DNA of 42,713 nt from a virus (lineage: Duplodnaviria; Heunggongvirae; Uroviricota; Caudoviricetes). Both the position numbers and the translations under genes were made by a program. The DNA is taken from IMG/VR virus record IMGVR_UViG_2636415959_000003, positions 1 through 42,713 of that record; one strand, given 5' to 3'. Positions 1-42,713 of the stretch are shown piece after piece (positions within the stretch are counted from its first letter, which is position 1; the number at the start of each line of letters is the position of its first letter). The notes under the pieces are model-generated. The model saw only the letters and a program-made list of their open reading frames with translations. It searched no databases and was not told the DNA's origin.

Positions 1-549
1 TCAGCTAGCTGGAAACTTTTTATACAGAGTTGAGAGCCCTACTCCATACGTTTTTGATACGCTTTGTCGTGATTCACCGGTTGCCATCCGCTCCCCCATT
101 TCCCGCCATTGCTCATCCGTGAACTTAGGCCTGCGACCACCAACTCGCCCTTTTGCCCTGGCTACGGCCAGCCCTGCTAAGGTACGTTCGCTATTAAGAT
201 CAGATTCATATTGTGCTGCGGAAAGGATGTTACGAAAGTTATAGCGGCCGCTGGCTGTTTTGAGATCCACGCCATCGGTAATACTGCGGAAGTTGATACC
301 CTTTTCCTGTAACTGCTGGAACATCAACAGCGCATGCAGAACGTTGCGGCCTATCCTGTCCAGCTTCCAGACCACCAGTTCATCCCCCGGCTGCATAGTG
401 GCGATCAGCCGTTTTAGAACCGGCCGATTCGATTTCCTCCCGCTGGCATGCTCTTCAAAAATTTTCTCACAACCCGCTGACTTGAGCGCCGTTAGTTGCA
501 ATTCAGTGTCCTGGTGGTTTGTTGATACTCGGGCATAACCGTAAATCAT
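1..549 (-). CDS. Serine DNA invertase (Hin/Gin/Pin/Cin family)
   Basis: 183 aa from ATG at 549 (GGAG RBS upstream) to stop at 1-3. N-terminal MIYGYARVSTNHQ catalytic-serine motif, VVWKLDRIGR, C-terminal HTH (GLSTLYKK), closely resembling Gin/Hin as recalled. Confidence 0.9.
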   Translation of the reverse strand: MIYGYARVSTNHQDTELQLTALKSAGCEKIFEEHASGRKSNRPVLKRLIATMQPGDELVVWKLDRIGRNVLHALLMFQQLQEKGINFRSITDGVDLKTASGRYNFRNILSAAQYESDLNSERTLAGLAVARAKGRVGGRRPKFTDEQWREMGERMATGESRQSVSKTYGVGLSTLYKKFPAS

Positions 550-601
550 GGGATTTCTCCTGTTATGAAAACAGGAGAAACGGCGAAGCATCACCAGATT
601 T

Positions 602-1132
602 TTGATGGTTATAAAAAAGGTTGGTTTGGGAGAAGGTTCAGCATTACCGGTTGGTGTGCCTGTTCCGTGGCCTTCAGCTACACCACCGACAGGCTGGTTG
701 AAATGCAATGGTGCAGCTTTTTCTGCTGAAGAATACCCGGAACTGGCAAAGGCTTACCCGACAAATAAATTGCCTGATTTACGCGGTGAGTTTATTCGTG
801 GCTGGGATGATGGACGCGGTGTGGATACGGGGAGGGCAATATTATCATCTCAGGGCGATGCCATACGTAATATCTATGGTGAGTTCAAGACTGTAAACGC
901 CGAAAATTATTCAATATGGGAATCAGTAGACTCTTTTAAGGGGGCAGTGGTGCCTTTGAACCCCTCAACGGACAATAGTTATTTCTCCATAATCAATAGT
1001 ATGTTGACACAAAGAACAGATGGCTCTGTTTACCCAACAGTGATTGGCCTTGATGCTTCAAGAATTGTTCCAACTGCAAACGAAAACCGTCCACGAAATA
1101 TTGCATTTAACTTTATCGTGAGGGCTGCATAA
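602..1132 (+). CDS. Alternative tail-fibre C-terminal variable segment (silent in this orientation)
   Basis: ORF in frame with the GLGE crossover codons (623-634). No credible own start (TTG/ATG inside the gix site). Would fuse to the constant fibre N-terminus after inversion. Confidence 0.6.
   Translation: MMVIKKVGLGEGSALPVGVPVPWPSATPPTGWLKCNGAAFSAEEYPELAKAYPTNKLPDLRGEFIRGWDDGRGVDTGRAILSSQGDAIRNIYGEFKTVNAENYSIWESVDSFKGAVVPLNPSTDNSYFSIINSMLTQRTDGSVYPTVIGLDASRIVPTANENRPRNIAFNFIVRAA
609..634. other. gix/hix-like inversion crossover site (left): TTATAAAAAAGG-TT-GGTTTGGGAGAA
   Basis: 26-bp site (12+2+12). Inner half-site GGTTTGGGAGAA is the exact inverted copy of TTCTCCCAAACC at 2478-2489. Resembles Gin/Hin site architecture. 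Confidence 0.7.
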
Positions 1133-1734
1133 TGGATAACGCTGTATTAAATAGCGAGCTTATTGCCACGAAGGCGGGGAATATTACCGTCTATAGCTAT
1201 GATGGTGAAACTCGGGAATATATTTCCACTTCAAATGAATATCTTGCCGTTGGCGTCGGTATCCCGGCATGTTCTTGTTTAGATGCACCAGTTACACATA
1301 AAGCTGGTTATGCAATCTGCCGTTCTGCAGATTTTAACTCATGGGAATATGTGCCAGACCATCGCGGTGAAATCATCTATAGCACCGAAACAGGAGAATC
1401 GAAAGAAATCACAGCTCTGGGTGATTACCCTGAAAATACAACCACTATCGCCCCGTTAACGCCATATGATAAATGGGATGGTGAGAAATGGGTGACAGAT
1501 ACTGAGGCACAGCATAGTGCCGCAGTAGACGCGGCAGAAGCACAGCGCCAGTCACTGATTGATGCAGCAATGGCTTCCATTAGTCTGATTCAGCTGAAAT
1601 TACAGGCCGGACGTAAACTGACGCAGGCAGAAACAACCAGACTTAACGCCGTGCTGGATTACATTGACGCGGTGACGGCAACAGATACCAGCACCGCGCC
1701 GGATGTCATCTGGCCTGAACTGCCGGAGGCGTAG
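1132..1734 (+). CDS. Tail fibre assembly protein (alternate copy)
   Basis: 200 aa; C-terminal STAPDVIWPELP motif typical of Tfa/Mu U-type chaperones. TAATG coupling to the upstream ORF. Confidence 0.7.
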   Translation: MDNAVLNSELIATKAGNITVYSYDGETREYISTSNEYLAVGVGIPACSCLDAPVTHKAGYAICRSADFNSWEYVPDHRGEIIYSTETGESKEITALGDYPENTTTIAPLTPYDKWDGEKWVTDTEAQHSAAVDAAEAQRQSLIDAAMASISLIQLKLQAGRKLTQAETTRLNAVLDYIDAVTATDTSTAPDVIWPELPEA

Positions 1735-2125
1735 GCCATTCAATATCGAGTGCTGTTGAAGTATTAATACGCATCAATAGCACTCGATATTCTTTCCATG
1801 CCAGTAACAGTTTCGTTTCATCATCTGTTGCCATACCTAAATCAACCGCATCCTGAAGCGGAGCTATTACATTCGTTGCCTCTGCTATCAGTGCAGATTT
1901 CTTTTCATCATTTATTAAGGCTAATTGTTCTGGTGTTGGAGAAGGACGGTCAACAATGACAGGATGACCGTTCTCACCACAGGTAATCATTTTTGTTACA
2001 CTCTGTGCATTAATCAGTGTTTTCCACTCTGATTCCGAGATTTCCACTGCATCATCAGGAATATTGGTGCCGTGAAATTCAGTCGAATAAAATCCGTTTG
2101 TCGATGCAGAATAAAAATATGACAT
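1706..2125 (-). CDS. Tail fibre assembly protein (currently expressed copy)
   Basis: Starts MSYFYSAS at 2125. C-terminus APLQDA..AWKEYRVLL..TSTALDIEWP resembles lambda Tfa C-terminus as recalled. Confidence 0.7.
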   Translation of the reverse strand: MSYFYSASTNGFYSTEFHGTNIPDDAVEISESEWKTLINAQSVTKMITCGENGHPVIVDRPSPTPEQLALINDEKKSALIAEATNVIAPLQDAVDLGMATDDETKLLLAWKEYRVLLMRINTSTALDIEWPTPPAVQAR

Positions 2126-2129
2126 TTCG

Positions 2130-2759
2130 TTAATATCCCATTGCAATGTAATACGCATCAGCAGATGAACCATATCCTGAACCGGGCGACACTGTAATAT
2201 TAAATCCAGTGTTCTGGACATTTGTCGCCGATACAGTCGGCTGCCCTGACGCGCCAGTAACGTTCAATGTAACTGTGACAGCAAGGACTCTTGAGAATGT
2301 CATCGGGAACCTTATCTCGTATGTTGAAGAAACATTCGGGGAGCCATTCAACTGACCGCACTGTAAAATTAAACCAGACGGAAATTTTTGCGCAGCAGCC
2401 GTTGCGGTATTACTTGACGCGAACAGGCTCATATCAGGTATCTGATTCGCCCCTGTACCTACATTCCTTTTAGCTGCTTCTCCCAAACCAAGGTTTGTGG
2501 TAATCGCTGTCGCCAGCTTTGCCACCAGTCCATCAACGTCACCATCATCGAGCGCGTCCAGTTCGGCGTTCGCGATAAACTGCCCCAGTACAGCCGCCAT
2601 CGTCGACGGTTGGCGCAGCGCTTTACTGACCTGTGCGCTGGATGCTTTACCCGAGGAGAATCCTTTCTTCAGTGCGGTTAGCGTCTCCCATTCCTCCTGC
2701 GAGGTAACATTTGCATTAGCATCTGTCGCAAACGCTTTAAAATCATTAGTTCCAGCCAT
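2130..2759 (-). CDS. Tail fibre protein (constant N-terminus 2759-2492 plus variable C-terminus 2489-2130)
   Basis: ATG at 2759 overlaps upstream stop (TAATG). The gix site lies in frame inside the gene (…TTNLGLGE…). Confidence 0.7.
   Translation of the reverse strand: MAGTNDFKAFATDANANVTSQEEWETLTALKKGFSSGKASSAQVSKALRQPSTMAAVLGQFIANAELDALDDGDVDGLVAKLATAITTNLGLGEAAKRNVGTGANQIPDMSLFASSNTATAAAQKFPSGLILQCGQLNGSPNVSSTYEIRFPMTFSRVLAVTVTLNVTGASGQPTVSATNVQNTGFNITVSPGSGYGSSADAYYIAMGY
2478..2503. other. gix/hix-like inversion crossover site (right): TTCTCCCAAACC-AA-GGTTTGTGGTAA
   Basis: 26-bp imperfect dyad inside the tail-fibre gene; inverted partner of the 609-634 site. Confidence 0.7.
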
Positions 2760-3439
2760 TAAAGTAATCTCCCCCATGCGCCGTCATCAAAACCGGCGAT
2801 GTATTCGTTATCCATGTCAAATCCAAAGAATTTTGTTCCTTCGGACGGTGTTTCGACCGAGGGTGTTTCAACGCCGCCAGCCCATACACCAGCAGCTTTA
2901 ACGGTGAGATAACCCTGTTTGATAGCGGCTATCAGTTCGAGTGACACATCAGAAATATCAGTCTCGGGAAAAACCCAGACCGATATCGTCATGTCCTGGT
3001 TATCGACGATCTGCATCTTCAGTCCAGAGCCTGCGGTAGCAGCGTCAAGGATGGGAGGCAGAGAGTCGTTCCGACCATCCCAGTTGTTGATAGCGATTTT
3101 CGCTTTCAGAATGATGCGGTACGTCTCATCACCCAGCGTCGTATAGCCAGAATCAGGATCATATGGCCCTTGCCAGATGCCCTGGTCATATCCGAGCCCG
3201 TCAGTGTCCCAGCTGAAATAAACGCCGCTAATTGGCTGGCTGACTATACGACTACGCCCAATCCACAGGCCGAGGATATCGAGTTGCACGCCAACCGCCG
3301 TATCGATATCGAAGGCTGTTACAAGCCCTGACATAGTGCTGGACACATCAATCAGCGGGCGGGTGCTCAGATCTATATGGTCAAAAAAGAGTGGCTTGGT
3401 AGCATGGTAGTTAGTGATCAGTTCGGTGTATTTGCTCAT
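2759..3439 (-). CDS. Baseplate/tail protein (Mu gp48-like, tentative)
   Basis: Position immediately upstream of the tail fibre; ATGA coupling at 3436-3439. Family assignment from gene order only. Confidence 0.45.
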   Translation of the reverse strand: MSKYTELITNYHATKPLFFDHIDLSTRPLIDVSSTMSGLVTAFDIDTAVGVQLDILGLWIGRSRIVSQPISGVYFSWDTDGLGYDQGIWQGPYDPDSGYTTLGDETYRIILKAKIAINNWDGRNDSLPPILDAATAGSGLKMQIVDNQDMTISVWVFPETDISDVSLELIAAIKQGYLTVKAAGVWAGGVETPSVETPSEGTKFFGFDMDNEYIAGFDDGAWGRLL

Positions 3440-4635
3440 GAGGTCACCGTGATAGTGACGTGACTCGCAACGCATGACGCAGATTCGTCATAAGCAATAT
3501 CGATATTTCCGCTTGCGACTGAGTCAGAGGATTTGCCGATGAGCAGCTCCTGAATGTCGTAATAGCGAGCACTGCCTCCGCTTACCACGCCAAGGTTTGC
3601 CGGGGAATAAATACGACTCAGCAGAACGTCATCGCCAATTGCCAGGCCATTTATATAATCGGCAACAGCCTGTTTAATCTGCTCGCCGATTTGAGAGGTA
3701 TAGCCGGTAAAAACTTTCAGGGTAATGGCTACGAAAATTGGCACATCGGTAGAGCGCGAAAAACTGATGACGTGTGGATTACCGTAAGTATCCGGCACCG
3801 TGACAGAAGTTTTACCGTAAGTTGCGGTTCCCTGCCCTTTATTCCCCCTGATGGTCTGGGCTATCTCGGTAACATCCCCTCCATCGACGATGGCGGAAAT
3901 AGAGTGTGGCGGCAGCCCGTTGCTGTCGGTTGCCCCAGTGTCGTTCTCATATAGTTTGTGACGTGTCACGCCAGCAACATTAGCGATAGCACCGTCGACA
4001 CCTTCAAACGGTGTGATCGATGGTAGCGCGACGCTTTGCCCCTGCCGAATGCGCAGCTCTGCGTCGGTTTCGGCTGGTGAACCGACAGTAGCCGCAACTG
4101 GATTGGTTACCGACACCCAACCTCGGGTCGGGGTGTTGATAGTGGTAATAGTCCCGGCCAGCGCCGCAACCGAACCGCTATTCGCACATGTGGCCGTCAC
4201 CAGCACAGTACCATCAACGCCGATCGCTACACTTGCGGGAAAATTCCAGATAATGCCGTTTTTATCCCGTGCGGAGCCATTCGTGATAGTCGTGCCTGCC
4301 GTACCGGTTAACAGAAGGTCAGCAGTAGAGTTTGTCGCTACTTTTCGCGTGATCCCGTTAATTTTCACATTGCTGCTAAGCGCTGCGGCCTGCGCTGTCG
4401 TCGGTGAAAAAGAGTTGTAGATCCCGATAGCGGTATTGTTAGCGTCATGCACCGCAAGAGCCACCAGCGCGACCATTTGCCCATCTTTGCTGTCTGGTTC
4501 GAGGTAGGCATCACTACCGTAAATCTGCCTGAAATAGCTGGTCAGTGTATCTAGGATTGTCTGGTAATCAGGCGCACTAATCCCCTGGGCGGTTACCGTT
4601 GCCGATAGCCCCAGCGTGTCGAGGTTCAAAGCCAT
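3436..4635 (-). CDS. Baseplate J-like protein (Mu gp47 / P2 gpJ-like)
   Basis: 399 aa; position and size in a myovirus baseplate cluster. Confidence 0.6.
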   Translation of the reverse strand: MALNLDTLGLSATVTAQGISAPDYQTILDTLTSYFRQIYGSDAYLEPDSKDGQMVALVALAVHDANNTAIGIYNSFSPTTAQAAALSSNVKINGITRKVATNSTADLLLTGTAGTTITNGSARDKNGIIWNFPASVAIGVDGTVLVTATCANSGSVAALAGTITTINTPTRGWVSVTNPVAATVGSPAETDAELRIRQGQSVALPSITPFEGVDGAIANVAGVTRHKLYENDTGATDSNGLPPHSISAIVDGGDVTEIAQTIRGNKGQGTATYGKTSVTVPDTYGNPHVISFSRSTDVPIFVAITLKVFTGYTSQIGEQIKQAVADYINGLAIGDDVLLSRIYSPANLGVVSGGSARYYDIQELLIGKSSDSVASGNIDIAYDESASCVASHVTITVTS

Positions 4636-41325: not shown

Positions 41326-41523
41326 ATGGATGATATTTTGGTAACGTCAGACCTGACCAGTCGCTACAAAATTTCACGCAAAACCCTTTGGTCATGGCAA
41401 AGTGCAGACACAATGCCTCGGGGCTTCGTATGCCCGTTCCCACCCCCTGACTGGCCCGGCAACCCTAACCGCTGGCGCTCTGAGTCAATCAAAGAGTGGG
41501 AGGATAAAAAGAAGATAAATTAA
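41326..41523 (+). CDS. xis: Excisionase / AlpA-like DNA-binding protein (tentative)
   Basis: [27 protein letters not shown]-like segment; adjacent to integrase; GGAGAG RBS. Confidence 0.5.
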
Positions 41524-42713
41524 CTGAAGGGCTCTCCGATGATCTCTTCAAGATGGCTCTGCCAAACGCGGAGCCAGTGTTTCTGATCATCGATATAGTC
41601 ATGAAGGTTGTAATGCGCCATAACCCCCACCATCTGATGCCCGAGCAGCTTTTCAATTACGTGCGGCGGGCAACCTAACTCAGAGAGATTTGTGGCTATC
41701 GTCCGCCTCATATCATGAAGCGACCACTCTGCCATACCTGTTCCATTCCAAATAGAACGGGCGTAATTGGATGCCACAGGTGAATGAACGGGCGAATCTT
41801 TGATCCCGCCATCAATTTTACGTTGTGAAGTCACCAGGTGATTGGTGTTTATTTTCTTGAGGTGATTTCTGACCAGGTTAACGGCGGCGTCTGAGAGTCC
41901 CCTTCTAATATGTACCCGAGTTTTATAACTGCCCGCAGGCACGACCCACTCATTATCATCCAATCGAAACCATGATCTCTCACTAAGTCGAATCTCAGCC
42001 GTACGGCATCCGGTAAGCATAATAAATTTCACCAGGAAAACGGACTCTATCGACATATGGCTTTTCAACCACTGATAGATTTTGCGCAGATCGTCATCGT
42101 CCATCCTGCGAGTTCTCTTTTTAGGCTTTTGCCCGACATCAGATGGCAGTAATCCCTCGAGTGGGTTTGAGGCGATCACACTTCTGTTAACGCAGAACCT
42201 AAACGCCCGTTTGCACAGCGAAAGCATGTAATGAGCCATCACCCTGCTTTCTATAGAATCGAAGACGTTGATCCAGTGCATTTTCGCTGTGTTATCGACT
42301 TTGACATTCTTCATCGGTTCGGCGATATGTTTCTCAAACACCTGGCGATAGTAATCGACTTTAACTAGCCCGTTAGCGATACAGTGCCTTTCAATCCAGT
42401 AATTGAACGCTTCGGCAACGGACATCGCTTCCTGTCGGGTCTGCTTATCCAGCTTCACCTGCTCTCGCGGATCCAGACCCTCAGTTAACCAGTTTCTGAA
42501 TTGTTGGCGACGCTCTCTTGCCTGGGTGATACTCATTGCAGGATAATCACCAACATTGAGTTTTACCGCTTTACCGGCCCAGCGATACCGATAGAAAAAT
42601 GATATTTTTCCGGCCTGGCTGATTCTGGCGTTGAGCCCGTGCGAATCAGAAATAATCTCGATATCATCTCTTTTCTTGCCGAGCGCCTTCCTGAGCTTTG
42701 TGTCGGTGATCAT
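41520..42713 (-). CDS. int: Tyrosine integrase (phage integrase family)
   Basis: 397 aa from ATG at the window edge (42713). C-terminal catalytic region with R…HxxR…Y pattern (HDMRRT…LLGH…AHY). N-terminus could extend beyond the window. Confidence 0.85.

Follow-up and report, generated by a model that had tools for sequence, protein, structure and literature searches.

We identify, with high confidence, a phage tail-fibre switch that works by site-specific DNA inversion in the window, a stretch of 42,713 bases that comprises a complete SEN34/Omnitron-like E. coli prophage (an intact, 42.7-kb myovirus) at a phi80-type attachment site beside yciI. The DNA flip-switch is real and very probably working; its mechanism has been known since the 1980s, and this is an ordinary case of it. 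No account of this switch emerged from literature searches on SEN34, Omnitron and mEp237.

The fibre gene is the last structural gene of the late tail operon; its first ~90 codons are fixed, and its receptor-binding C-terminus and the matching chaperone lie inside a 1,871-bp segment between inverted 26-bp sites. According to the proposed mechanism, the adjacent small serine recombinase would bind both sites, cut the central AA/TT via Ser9, turn one pair of half-sites by 180 degrees and religate, a chemistry taken from homology to Gin/Hin. A Gp53-like C-terminus and a 139-aa chaperone would thereby be replaced by a Collar C-terminus and a 200-aa chaperone, with both fusions kept in frame by shared LGLGE codons, and a population of lysogens would release two kinds of virion with differing receptor specificity.

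Crossover sites and fibre cassettes

The features of the switch are collected in Table 1. Using a repeat finder and exact matching, we located two 26-bp sites in inverted orientation that have the half-site TTCTCCCAAACC in common and AA/TT as their core, just where the initial annotation had placed a pair of sites with a common half-site and a 2-bp core. The repeat finder reported arms of 27 nt (609-635 and 2477-2503) that are 81% complementary with 1,841 nt between them, and an inverted repeat of such quality is alone not rare (18 pairs within 5 kb). The 12-mer TTCTCCCAAACC has exactly two copies in the 42,713 bases, one per strand (623-634, minus; 2478-2489, plus), and the chance expectation for a given 12-mer, calculated from length alone, is ~0.005. 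In a common sense, the right site reads TTCTCCCAAACC-AA-GGTTTGTGGTAA and the reverse complement of the left site reads TTCTCCCAAACC-AA-CCTTTTTTATAA; compared with cix, gix and pix from reference records, both are imperfect 26-bp palindromes, inverted and with the same 2-bp core. The invertase-proximal site is identical in Omnitron, PSJ-22, COL60J, L011, L012, L016, L017, L019 and L020, and an identical copy of the fibre-side site occurs throughout the lineage. The inner half-site of both is the inner half-site of e14 pix (cf. PMC12529663). Two further half-site matches with two mismatches each (464-475 and 1932-1943) lack an AAACC-NN-GGTTT centre and were rejected as extra crossover sites; the switch is therefore a two-site and not a multi-site (Min-type) one.

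Table 1. Features of the inversion switch and its neighbours, by position in the window
Feature	Position	Strand	Details
Serine DNA invertase gene	1..549	-	182 aa, MIYGYARVST..., Ser9 nucleophile
Candidate enhancer, region of the invertase gene (+19..+90)	460..531	-	Homology to the annotated P1 cin recombinational enhancer
12-bp hairpin, invertase leader	553..581	-	Shine-Dalgarno AGGAG in the 3' arm
Small GC hairpin and U-rich tract, upstream of invertase	582..595	-	Terminator-like match 596-581, - strand
Invertase-proximal crossover site, pix-like	609-634		Core TT at 621-622
Silent alternative fibre C-terminus, phage tail Collar domain	623..1132	+	Pfam Collar E=1.1e-15
Silent tail-fibre assembly chaperone, 200 aa, paired with Collar cassette	1132..1734	+	Pfam Caudo_TAP E=1.2e-32
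Currently expressed tail-fibre assembly chaperone, 139 aa	1706..2125	-	Pfam Caudo_TAP E=4.4e-31
18-bp-stem palindrome	1742..1791	+	Inverted repeat, 94% complementary
Variable fibre C-terminus, currently expressed (Gp53-like_C / H-type lectin-like)	2130..2489	-	Pfam Gp53-like_C E=1.8e-14; H_lectin E=5.6e-4, under the curated cutoff
Fibre gene	2759..2130	-	209 aa, Gp53-like_C
Fibre-side crossover site, pix-like	2478-2503		Core AA at 2490-2491
Constant fibre N-terminal part, ~90 aa	2492..2759	-	MAGTNDF...TTNL; 100% identical in L012, L017, L020
Baseplate wedge gene, DUF2612	2759..3475	-	Pfam E=8.5e-46; directly upstream of fibre
Baseplate_J gene	3436-4635		Pfam E=3.4e-15

Between the sites lie two convergent cassettes, each made of a fibre C-terminus and a chaperone, and the constant N-terminus of the fibre lies outside them. 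The open reading frames of the invertase, the fibre tip, the two chaperones and the Collar set are present as the initial annotation described them, except for the fibre start, which is most likely the ATG at 2759 (MAGTNDF...) and not 2777. This ATG shares one base with the stop codon of the DUF2612 wedge gene (TAATG), and the resulting 209-aa product is an exact public protein (WP_047400862.1); NCBIfam assigned neither the fibre nor the chaperone proteins to a named family. Its DUF2612 and Baseplate_J neighbours indicate that the late tail operon ends with the fibre gene, and a systematic survey has found DUF2612 neighbours to be enriched beside inversion-targeted genes (PMC9881135).

The reading frame is compatible with both orientations. 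The GLGE codons sit in the inner half-site at both ends, and the TT/AA core falls inside the preceding Leu codon. When we flipped 621-2491 in silico, the frame was kept, the junction changed from ...TTNLGLGE|AAKRNV... to ...TTNLGLGE|GSALPV... and the fibre became 259 aa long instead of the present 209 aa, in agreement with the earlier claim that GLGE stays in frame while the cassettes are swapped. Six related loci share this arrangement of a constant N-terminus and convergent, in-frame cassettes with cognate chaperones. The Collar cassette lacks its own start codon in frame with a promoter, and its expression requires inversion; both silent open reading frames are open and full length. The stretch 623-1734 should not be annotated as two independent or truncated genes. 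Since the locus encodes two full-length fibre products (209 and 259 aa), a prediction of host range must consider both, and the unrelated domains of the two tips (Gp53-like_C versus Collar) suggest that host range or adsorption would change between orientations. The palindrome at 1742..1791 begins 8 nt past the stop of the 200-aa chaperone gene, within the 3' end of the opposing chaperone gene, and folds with a minimum free energy of -30.3 kcal/mol (z = -7.5); it is also present in EC12/EC15 and is probably a terminator for the flipped state.

Inversion among related genomes

Comparisons between relatives captured the segment in both orientations. In two pairs of loci, L017 (PSJ-22) with L022 and L012 with L028, the segment (1,848 and 1,986 bp, respectively) is 100% identical and reversed, and both 1,500-bp flanks are 100% identical; these loci carry the window's exact sites and constant region, together with an invertase gene that is 99.8-100% identical to its own. 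In a third pair, EC12 with EC15, flanks that are 100% identical enclose a reversed segment that is 97% identical to the window's, and the outer half-sites, which differ in sequence, have changed places precisely at the AA/TT core. Relatives thus display strand exchange at the core (EC12/EC15) and perfect inversion with the window's sites and enzyme (the other two pairs). Moreover, the fibres obtained by flipping L011, L012 and L017 in silico are exact proteins in public data, and 9 complete E. coli genomes fuse the window's constant region to a gp53-type cassette and 4 to a Collar-type one. The expectation that the switch is functional is thus supported by E. coli assemblies in which the same invertase, sites and constant region occur in either orientation. 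The initial annotation had also called it locked in one orientation, which the data do not show; an assembly reports the majority orientation only.

These differences between genomes could in principle have arisen through homologous recombination at short inverted repeats, or through replacement of cassettes, and such cassette exchange clearly also happens, the cassettes being highly mosaic between relatives. However, the identity at the junctions extends for only ~15-16 bp, which is probably too short for efficient RecA-mediated exchange; the swap of the EC12/EC15 outer half-sites exactly at the central dinucleotide speaks against homologous exchange, and cassette replacement would not produce the two pairs whose segments match at 100% over their entire length and differ only in direction. 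We consider this origin hardly credible and retain site-specific inversion.

A second question is which enzyme performs the inversion. The EC12/EC15 segment flips even though the adjacent invertase gene has been truncated to a 200-bp fragment, so inversion can be driven in trans, and a flipping enzyme supplied by PinE, PinQ, PinR or another prophage would leave the adjacent gene dispensable or otherwise specialised. In keeping with this, the inner half-sites are those of e14 pix, PinE, PinQ and PinR each invert the e14 P segment (PMC12529663), and mEp237 and L013 encode the exact invertase as an orphan accompanied by no more than one site. Against it, the invertase-proximal site (AAACC-AA-CCTTTT) is conserved at ~60-70 bp before the start of the invertase gene throughout the clade, in several genera, both clean inversion pairs carry the window's invertase intact, and the intact gene with its invariant distinctive motifs indicates purifying selection. 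An enzyme acting in trans is consequently improbable, and we infer that the adjacent invertase does the flipping.

The invertase and its control

The adjacent gene was proposed to encode a Hin/Gin-family invertase, and its product contains Resolvase (Pfam, E=3.6e-39) and HTH_7 (E=1.5e-9) domains and matches, over its full length, the Gin structures 3UJ3/4M6F (E=1.4e-56, the best among solved structures); NCBIfam gave distant, below-cutoff matches only. Its length falls within that of small serine recombinases (~180-195 aa), and it has their N-terminal catalytic Ser and C-terminal helix-turn-helix. A mutation of the catalytic Ser in MIYGYARVST had been named as a possible sign of inactivity, but Ser9 is intact, as are the remaining conserved residues of the catalytic domain, with Y5, R7, S9, D64, R65 and R68 all conserved in the invertase alignment. 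At least 1,000 E. coli contigs, as well as phage mEp237, encode exactly this protein, and its gene accompanies the phi80-type attP/integrase module in lambdoid, Mu-like-tailed and SEN34-like phages alike.

Eight canonical invertases are 64-80% identical to Gin, whereas the window protein is 48-55% identical to them (48-55% to Gin/Pin/Cin/Fin and 55% to PinE) and is therefore no close relative of the canonical Gin/Hin/Cin/Pin members. It groups instead in a clade whose proteins are 62-100% identical and carry the invariant motif SGRYNFRNILSAAQYESDLNSERT, an altered helix E. Judged by fold and domains, the invertase is a Hin/Gin-family member, yet one of a separate clade, and this clade is the sole part of the system that could teach something new.

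The invertase leader is predicted to be strongly structured. The region 540-612 (minus strand) folds with a minimum free energy of -23.1 kcal/mol (z = -4.8), and 0 of 200 shuffles fold as well. Because AGGAG lies inside an arm of the hairpin at 553..581, this structure probably limits translation of the invertase, and covering the ribosome-binding site in this way would keep its expression low. The leader hairpin and the GC hairpin at 582..595 are both kept in the subclade 87-100% identical to the window invertase; in mEp237, both arms of the leader hairpin have changed with pairing kept (U-A to C-G). The GC hairpin may insulate the invertase from late-operon read-through.

Canonical inversion also relies on negative supercoiling, on host Fis and on a cis-acting enhancer with two Fis sites in the 5' part of the invertase gene, which the P1 record annotates at +19..+90 of cin; canonical family members can complement one another. 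The corresponding stretch is the window gene's best-conserved DNA versus canonical invertase genes (windowed identity of 0.62-0.72, versus 0.55-0.60 overall), and synonymous-site conservation is raised at codons 1-24 in the clade without the second canonical peak at codons 25-36; both measures are suggestive but confounded by a strongly conserved catalytic motif, and are proof in neither direction. The proximal block GTATCAACAAA is kept, whereas the clade lacks the distal block of canonical invertase genes (nt 71-85, G...C), for which the window has CAGCGGGTTGTGAGA. A scan of invertase gene 5' ends for Fis sites (G-N13-C 15-mers with an A/T-rich centre) returned no clean, consistent pair, even in gin, cin and pinE.

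The Hin residues that contact Fis or the enhancer (Q151, R154, L155 and basic residues at 47, 48 and 51) are described as conserved among Fis-dependent invertases (PMC3798978). In the window invertase, E150, E153 and R154 replace the first three, the first two basic residues are kept as K46 and R47, and the third is A50; the clade is variable at these positions, with two of its members retaining R-L. Hin F105, H107 and M115, in the region of the helix-E dimer lock (PMC4513852), correspond to N104, R106 and Y114, and the clade likewise has Asn for Phe105, Arg for His107 and Tyr for Met115. In Hin, the substitution F105N renders cleavage and inversion Fis-independent. With helix E altered in the clade and the Fis-contact residues replaced in the window protein, dependence on Fis and the enhancer is unproven. 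We put forward tentatively, as a rather unlikely reading of these residues and of the conserved leader hairpin, that the invertase represents a distinct, widespread enterobacterial clade that is Fis/enhancer-independent or weakly dependent and is checked instead by very low translation. Should the clade prove able to work without them, nature would have supplied an equivalent of the hyperactive Hin/Gin mutants made in the laboratory, and perhaps a compact recombinase for use as a tool.

The same features bear on whether the switch in this prophage could be a fossil, anatomically intact but with no meaningful inversion rate owing to a degenerate enhancer or a barely expressed invertase. The altered distal block and the strong hairpin that occludes the invertase ribosome-binding site would fit such decay, as would the record of the exact segment, which is in a single orientation (2 contigs). 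The window's own flipped fibre (259 aa) was not found by exact look-up in a collection of 15 billion proteins, although, with the present form on two contigs only, its absence says little either way. However, the invertase gene, sites and constant region are identical to those of recently flipped loci, both silent reading frames remain open at full length, and conservation of the leader hairpin suggests regulation rather than decay. We therefore judge a fossil very improbable and a working switch the better account.

Comparison with known inversion systems

The closest relative of the switch is the P segment of the defective E. coli K-12 prophage e14 (PinE; pix; stfP/tfaP and stfE/tfaE), and not the 3-kb Mu G segment. 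The architecture is the same in mirror image, with a constant N-terminus, two convergent tip/chaperone cassettes and an invertase reading away. The TTCTCCCAAACC inner half-site and AA core of e14 are identical to the window's, as is the published repeat TTGGTTTGGGAGAAGG, and a gp53-like cassette is common to both (PMC12529663). The segments are of similar size (1,797 bp in e14 versus 1,871 bp) and both serve a short fibre; the window's Collar cassette can be aligned to the first part of e14 stfE, the invertase-to-cassette stretch is 74.8% identical and the 200-aa chaperone gene is 92.5% identical to tfaE at the nucleotide level. The e14 P segment, with the same inverted-repeat sequence and architecture, inverts experimentally (PMC12529663; PMC4272514), and its system was recently tied to anti-phage defence (PMC12529663). 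The two differ in their outer half-sites and in their enzymes, PinE being of another clade and 55% identical to the window invertase. In addition, e14 is a decayed element at icd, whereas the window's switch resides in an intact prophage at the yciI/phi80 site, and so adds an intact, inducible-looking relative of the decayed system.

The Mu G (Gin, gix) and P1 C (Cin, cix) segments likewise have an invertase beside a segment that swaps a fibre C-terminus and chaperone, and their sites share with the window's the 26-bp length, the AAACC-NN-GGTTT centre and a 2-bp core. Unlike the window's segment, they serve long fibres and measure 3.0 and 4.2 kb, respectively; Mu has GA/TC as its core. The window invertase is 51-52% identical to Gin/Cin, differing from them in its helix-E motif and its replaced Fis-contact residues. 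Hin/hix, the Fis/enhancer-dependent invertasome of Salmonella flagellar phase variation, belongs to the same enzyme family and presumably works by the same chemistry and subunit rotation. The window's site resembles hixL, TTCTTGAAAACC-AA-GGTTTTTGATAA, and the start of the invertase gene lies at a Hin-like spacing of ~70 bp from the crossover site. Hin, however, flips a promoter, whereas the switch in the window flips a coding cassette.

Crossover sites and reading frames of the segment

The half-site TTCTCCCAAACC occurs exactly twice in the 42.7 kb, once per strand, and both occurrences fall where the initial annotation had predicted inverted sites, at 609-634 and 2478-2503; these sites are real. 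Read in the same sense, they are TTCTCCCAAACC-AA-GGTTTGTGGTAA and TTCTCCCAAACC-AA-CCTTTTTTATAA, with the 12-2-12 layout of the cix (P1) and gix (Mu) sites taken from reference records. A repeat scan described the arms as 609-635 and 2477-2503 (27 nt, 81% complementary), and the same scan of 5 kb returned 18 inverted pairs, so that such repeat quality alone is not statistically special. Both pix sites of the e14 P segment, the invertible fibre segment of a defective E. coli K-12 prophage, have an inner half-site and core identical to those of the window, which also match the published P segment repeat TTGGTTTGGGAGAAGG (PMC12529663).

The segment carries two convergent sets of genes, and the expressed fibre gene is translationally coupled to the upstream DUF2612 wedge gene. 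Reversing 621-2491 in silico converts ...TTNLGLGE-AAKRNV... (209 aa) into ...TTNLGLGE-GSALPV... (259 aa). The core dinucleotide lies within a Leu codon and the frame is undisturbed, which bears out the earlier claim that the sites keep the frame in both orientations. The initial coordinates and description were otherwise correct, the sole adjustment being the fibre start, which we take as ATG 2759 because it gives the exact public-database protein. At their 3' ends, the chaperone genes of the two sets share 29 bp, and tfaP and tfaE of e14 likewise overlap.

Features of the window
Feature	Position	Strand	Remarks
Serine invertase, 182 aa	549..1	-	Resolvase and HTH_7 domains
12-bp hairpin	553-581	-	3' arm contains invertase Shine-Dalgarno; -23.1 kcal/mol, z = -4.8
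Small GC hairpin and U tract	582-595	-	Invertase leader
Collar-domain reading frame	623..1132	+	Convergent on fibre/chaperone genes
Chaperone, 200 aa	1132..1734	+	Caudo_TAP; convergent on fibre/chaperone genes
Palindrome	1742-1791		Near-perfect 18-bp stem; -30.3 kcal/mol, z = -7.5
Chaperone, 139 aa	2125..1706	-	Caudo_TAP; after fibre gene
Fibre, 209 aa	2759..2130	-	Gp53-like C-terminal domain
ORF, 116 aa	5945-6295	+	Borderline EACC1 match
Tyrosine integrase	41520-42713	-	

Both orientations among related prophages

The window itself represents one orientation. By exact look-up, its own flipped fibre is absent from the protein collection; only two contigs carry the present fibre. Relatives carry the segment in both orientations, and they settle the initial proposal that the switch is likely functional. 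Three E. coli isolates from one hospital contain a P2-like prophage whose segment matches that of the window at 97% identity; it is oriented one way in EC12 and reversed in EC15 and EC18. EC12 and EC15 agree at 100% identity across about 3 kb of flanking sequence on either side, and the two non-identical outer half-sites have been swapped exactly at the AA/TT core. General recombination is a very unlikely source of these inversions between genomes, because the shared identity amounts to only about 15-16 bp and the exchange falls exactly at the core.

The exact window invertase is present on thousands (at least 1,000) of E. coli contigs, and in several of ten sampled invertase loci both 26-bp sites and the constant fibre region are 100% identical to those of the window. 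We flipped the sampled loci in silico, looked up the predicted fibres by exact sequence and fetched the matching contigs; three of five predicted flipped fibres were present in public data. PSJ-22 (L017) and SRR12849843 (L022) share a 1,848-bp segment that is 100% identical and reversed, between 1,500-bp flanks that are both 100% identical. The same holds for a 1,986-bp segment and its flanks in GCA_001412995 (L012) and GCA_001413475 (L028). The switch is unlikely to be a fossil in the window prophage, because its invertase gene, sites and constant region are identical to those of recently flipped loci and its silent reading frames are open.

Of 5,426 complete E. coli genomes, 9 have a gp53-type cassette fused to the constant region and 4 have a Collar-type cassette there. 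Less related loci carry strongly mosaic cassettes, with identity ending exactly at the sites' outer edges, a pattern that would be expected of a module both inverting and exchanging cassettes. Two sampled loci hold naturally locked or decayed versions of the same switch: L014 has an IS66 family element within the 200-aa chaperone, and L015 has IS1 beside a truncated gp53-like cassette.

In EC12 and EC15 (L003/L004), the recombinase gene adjoining the segment is only a 200-bp fragment; the flip between them therefore implies an invertase encoded elsewhere in the genome. For the segment of the window, flipping by an invertase acting in trans is a less likely possibility. Throughout the invertase clade, the proximal site is kept about 60-70 bp upstream of the invertase, which favours action in cis.

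The invertase, its mechanism and its expression

The alignment of the window invertase to Gin, for which crystal structures exist, spans the full length (E=1.4e-56). A mutated catalytic Ser in MIYGYARVST had been named as evidence that would count against the switch; in the alignment Ser9 is kept, along with other conserved catalytic-domain residues. The best-supported account of the switch is the classical invertase mechanism, in which the enzyme would bind both sites, cleave at the central dinucleotide via Ser9, exchange half-sites by subunit rotation and religate them. Where the late tail operon ends, inversion would exchange the receptor-binding tip together with the chaperone dedicated to it, and the segment would need no internal promoter.

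In an alignment of 22 sequences, members of the canonical group share 64-80% identity with Gin, and the window invertase shares 48-55% with that group; judged by sequence, it is not closely related to Gin, Cin, Pin, Fin or Hin. Its clade-mates (62-100% identical) come from Trabulsiella, Kluyvera, Pseudocitrobacter, Shimwellia, Apirhabdus, Citrobacter, Erwinia, Morganella and one jumbo phage record. Helix E reads SGRYNFRNILSAAQYESDLNSERT in the clade, invariant except for three substitutions in phage record L049, and MGRFFFHVMGALAEMERELIVERT in the canonical group. In Hin numbering, the clade has Asn at Phe105, Arg at His107, Ile at Met109 and Tyr at Met115. The inactive Hin dimer is locked by Phe105 and Met109, and the Hin F105N mutant cleaves independently of Fis, inverts faster in vivo and induces SOS (PMC4513852). 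Fis activation of Hin requires Arg154 and Leu155, described as conserved among Fis-dependent invertases (PMC3798978). The window invertase has Glu153 and Arg154 at these positions, which vary within the clade. The initial Hin/Gin-family assignment thus stands as family membership and does not extend, by alignment, to the Fis-contact residues or to close sequence kinship.

The invertase gene may still contain a recombinational enhancer. DNA conservation between clades is highest in the stretch that corresponds by homology to the enhancer annotated in P1, and synonymous sites are constrained over codons 1-24; both overlap the catalytic motif, where coding constraint confounds the comparison. A second conserved block of canonical invertase genes is missing from the clade's synonymous-site profile, a comparison likewise confounded by coding constraint.

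The palindrome begins 8 nt past the stop of the silent 200-aa chaperone, inside the 3'-terminal coding sequence of the expressed 139-aa chaperone; after a flip it would serve as the operon's terminator. In the present orientation, read-through from the late operon would enter the invertase gene in the sense direction, reaching first the GC hairpin and then the 12-bp hairpin. The subclade whose invertases are 87-100% identical to that of the window has kept this leader, more distant clade members have a different one, and the leader hairpin of phage mEp237 has a pairing-preserving change on both arms. This conservation and paired change suggest that invertase expression is kept deliberately low.

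Prophage setting and comparison with known systems

The window is a complete temperate myovirus prophage, bounded by the invertase stop codon at base 1 and by the tyrosine integrase start codon at the other end. Between these two genes lie a CI-type repressor, a Dam-type methyltransferase, the large terminase, a DUF3383 sheath-like protein and a baseplate module. Its structural half is matched at 95% identity over 69% of its length by Citrobacter phage Omnitron; with Salmonella phage SEN34 and a group of induced E. coli phages the identity is about 83-85%. The 116-aa ORF, on the strand opposite to the neighbouring baseplate genes, looks like a moron inserted among tail genes; its match to EACC1 (Effector Associated Constant Component 1) scores at the cutoff (E=5e-5), and it is found in some relatives (L020, L025, L028).

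E. coli assembly GCA_000768425.1 has a 100% identical copy of window bases 1-3475 with yciI just past the invertase gene, and this position is the phi80-type attachment site. The identical 182-aa invertase lies beside yciI in prophages with three unrelated tail backbones (L010-L019, L043): SEN34-like (DUF2612 wedge), Mu-like baseplate (Gp45/46/48) and lambdoid siphovirus (GpJ). Decayed prophage remnants also carry it. Phage mEp237 has a 100% identical invertase directly beside its annotated attP and integrase. In mEp237 and locus L013 the invertase is an orphan that lacks an invertible segment and has only a single crossover site. The invertase gene appears to move with the attP/integrase module, not with the fibre module. 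L010, a lambdoid prophage with the same invertase, has no TTCTCCCAAACC half-site; two convergent Peptidase_S74 (intramolecular chaperone) ORFs lie at its positions 3193-4376, between the side tail fibre gene and the invertase, and the enzyme may here act on another type of cassette or at another site.

We file the element as one that works like the Gin/Pin system, with an enzyme of the same family. Among known systems, the e14 P segment comes closest: it shares the mirror-image gene order as well as the inner half-site and core. A gp53-like cassette occurs in both segments, the Collar cassette of the window can be aligned to the beginning of e14 stfE, and the window's 200-aa chaperone is 92.5% identical in DNA to e14 tfaE. 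Inversion of the P segment has been shown experimentally, with PinE, PinQ and PinR acting on it in trans (PMC4272514; PMC12529663). A systematic survey of programmed inversions found tail-fibre proteins among the targets, with tail-fibre assembly and DUF2612 proteins enriched as neighbours (PMC9881135). The switch is an ordinary element, correctly read, of a kind already known.
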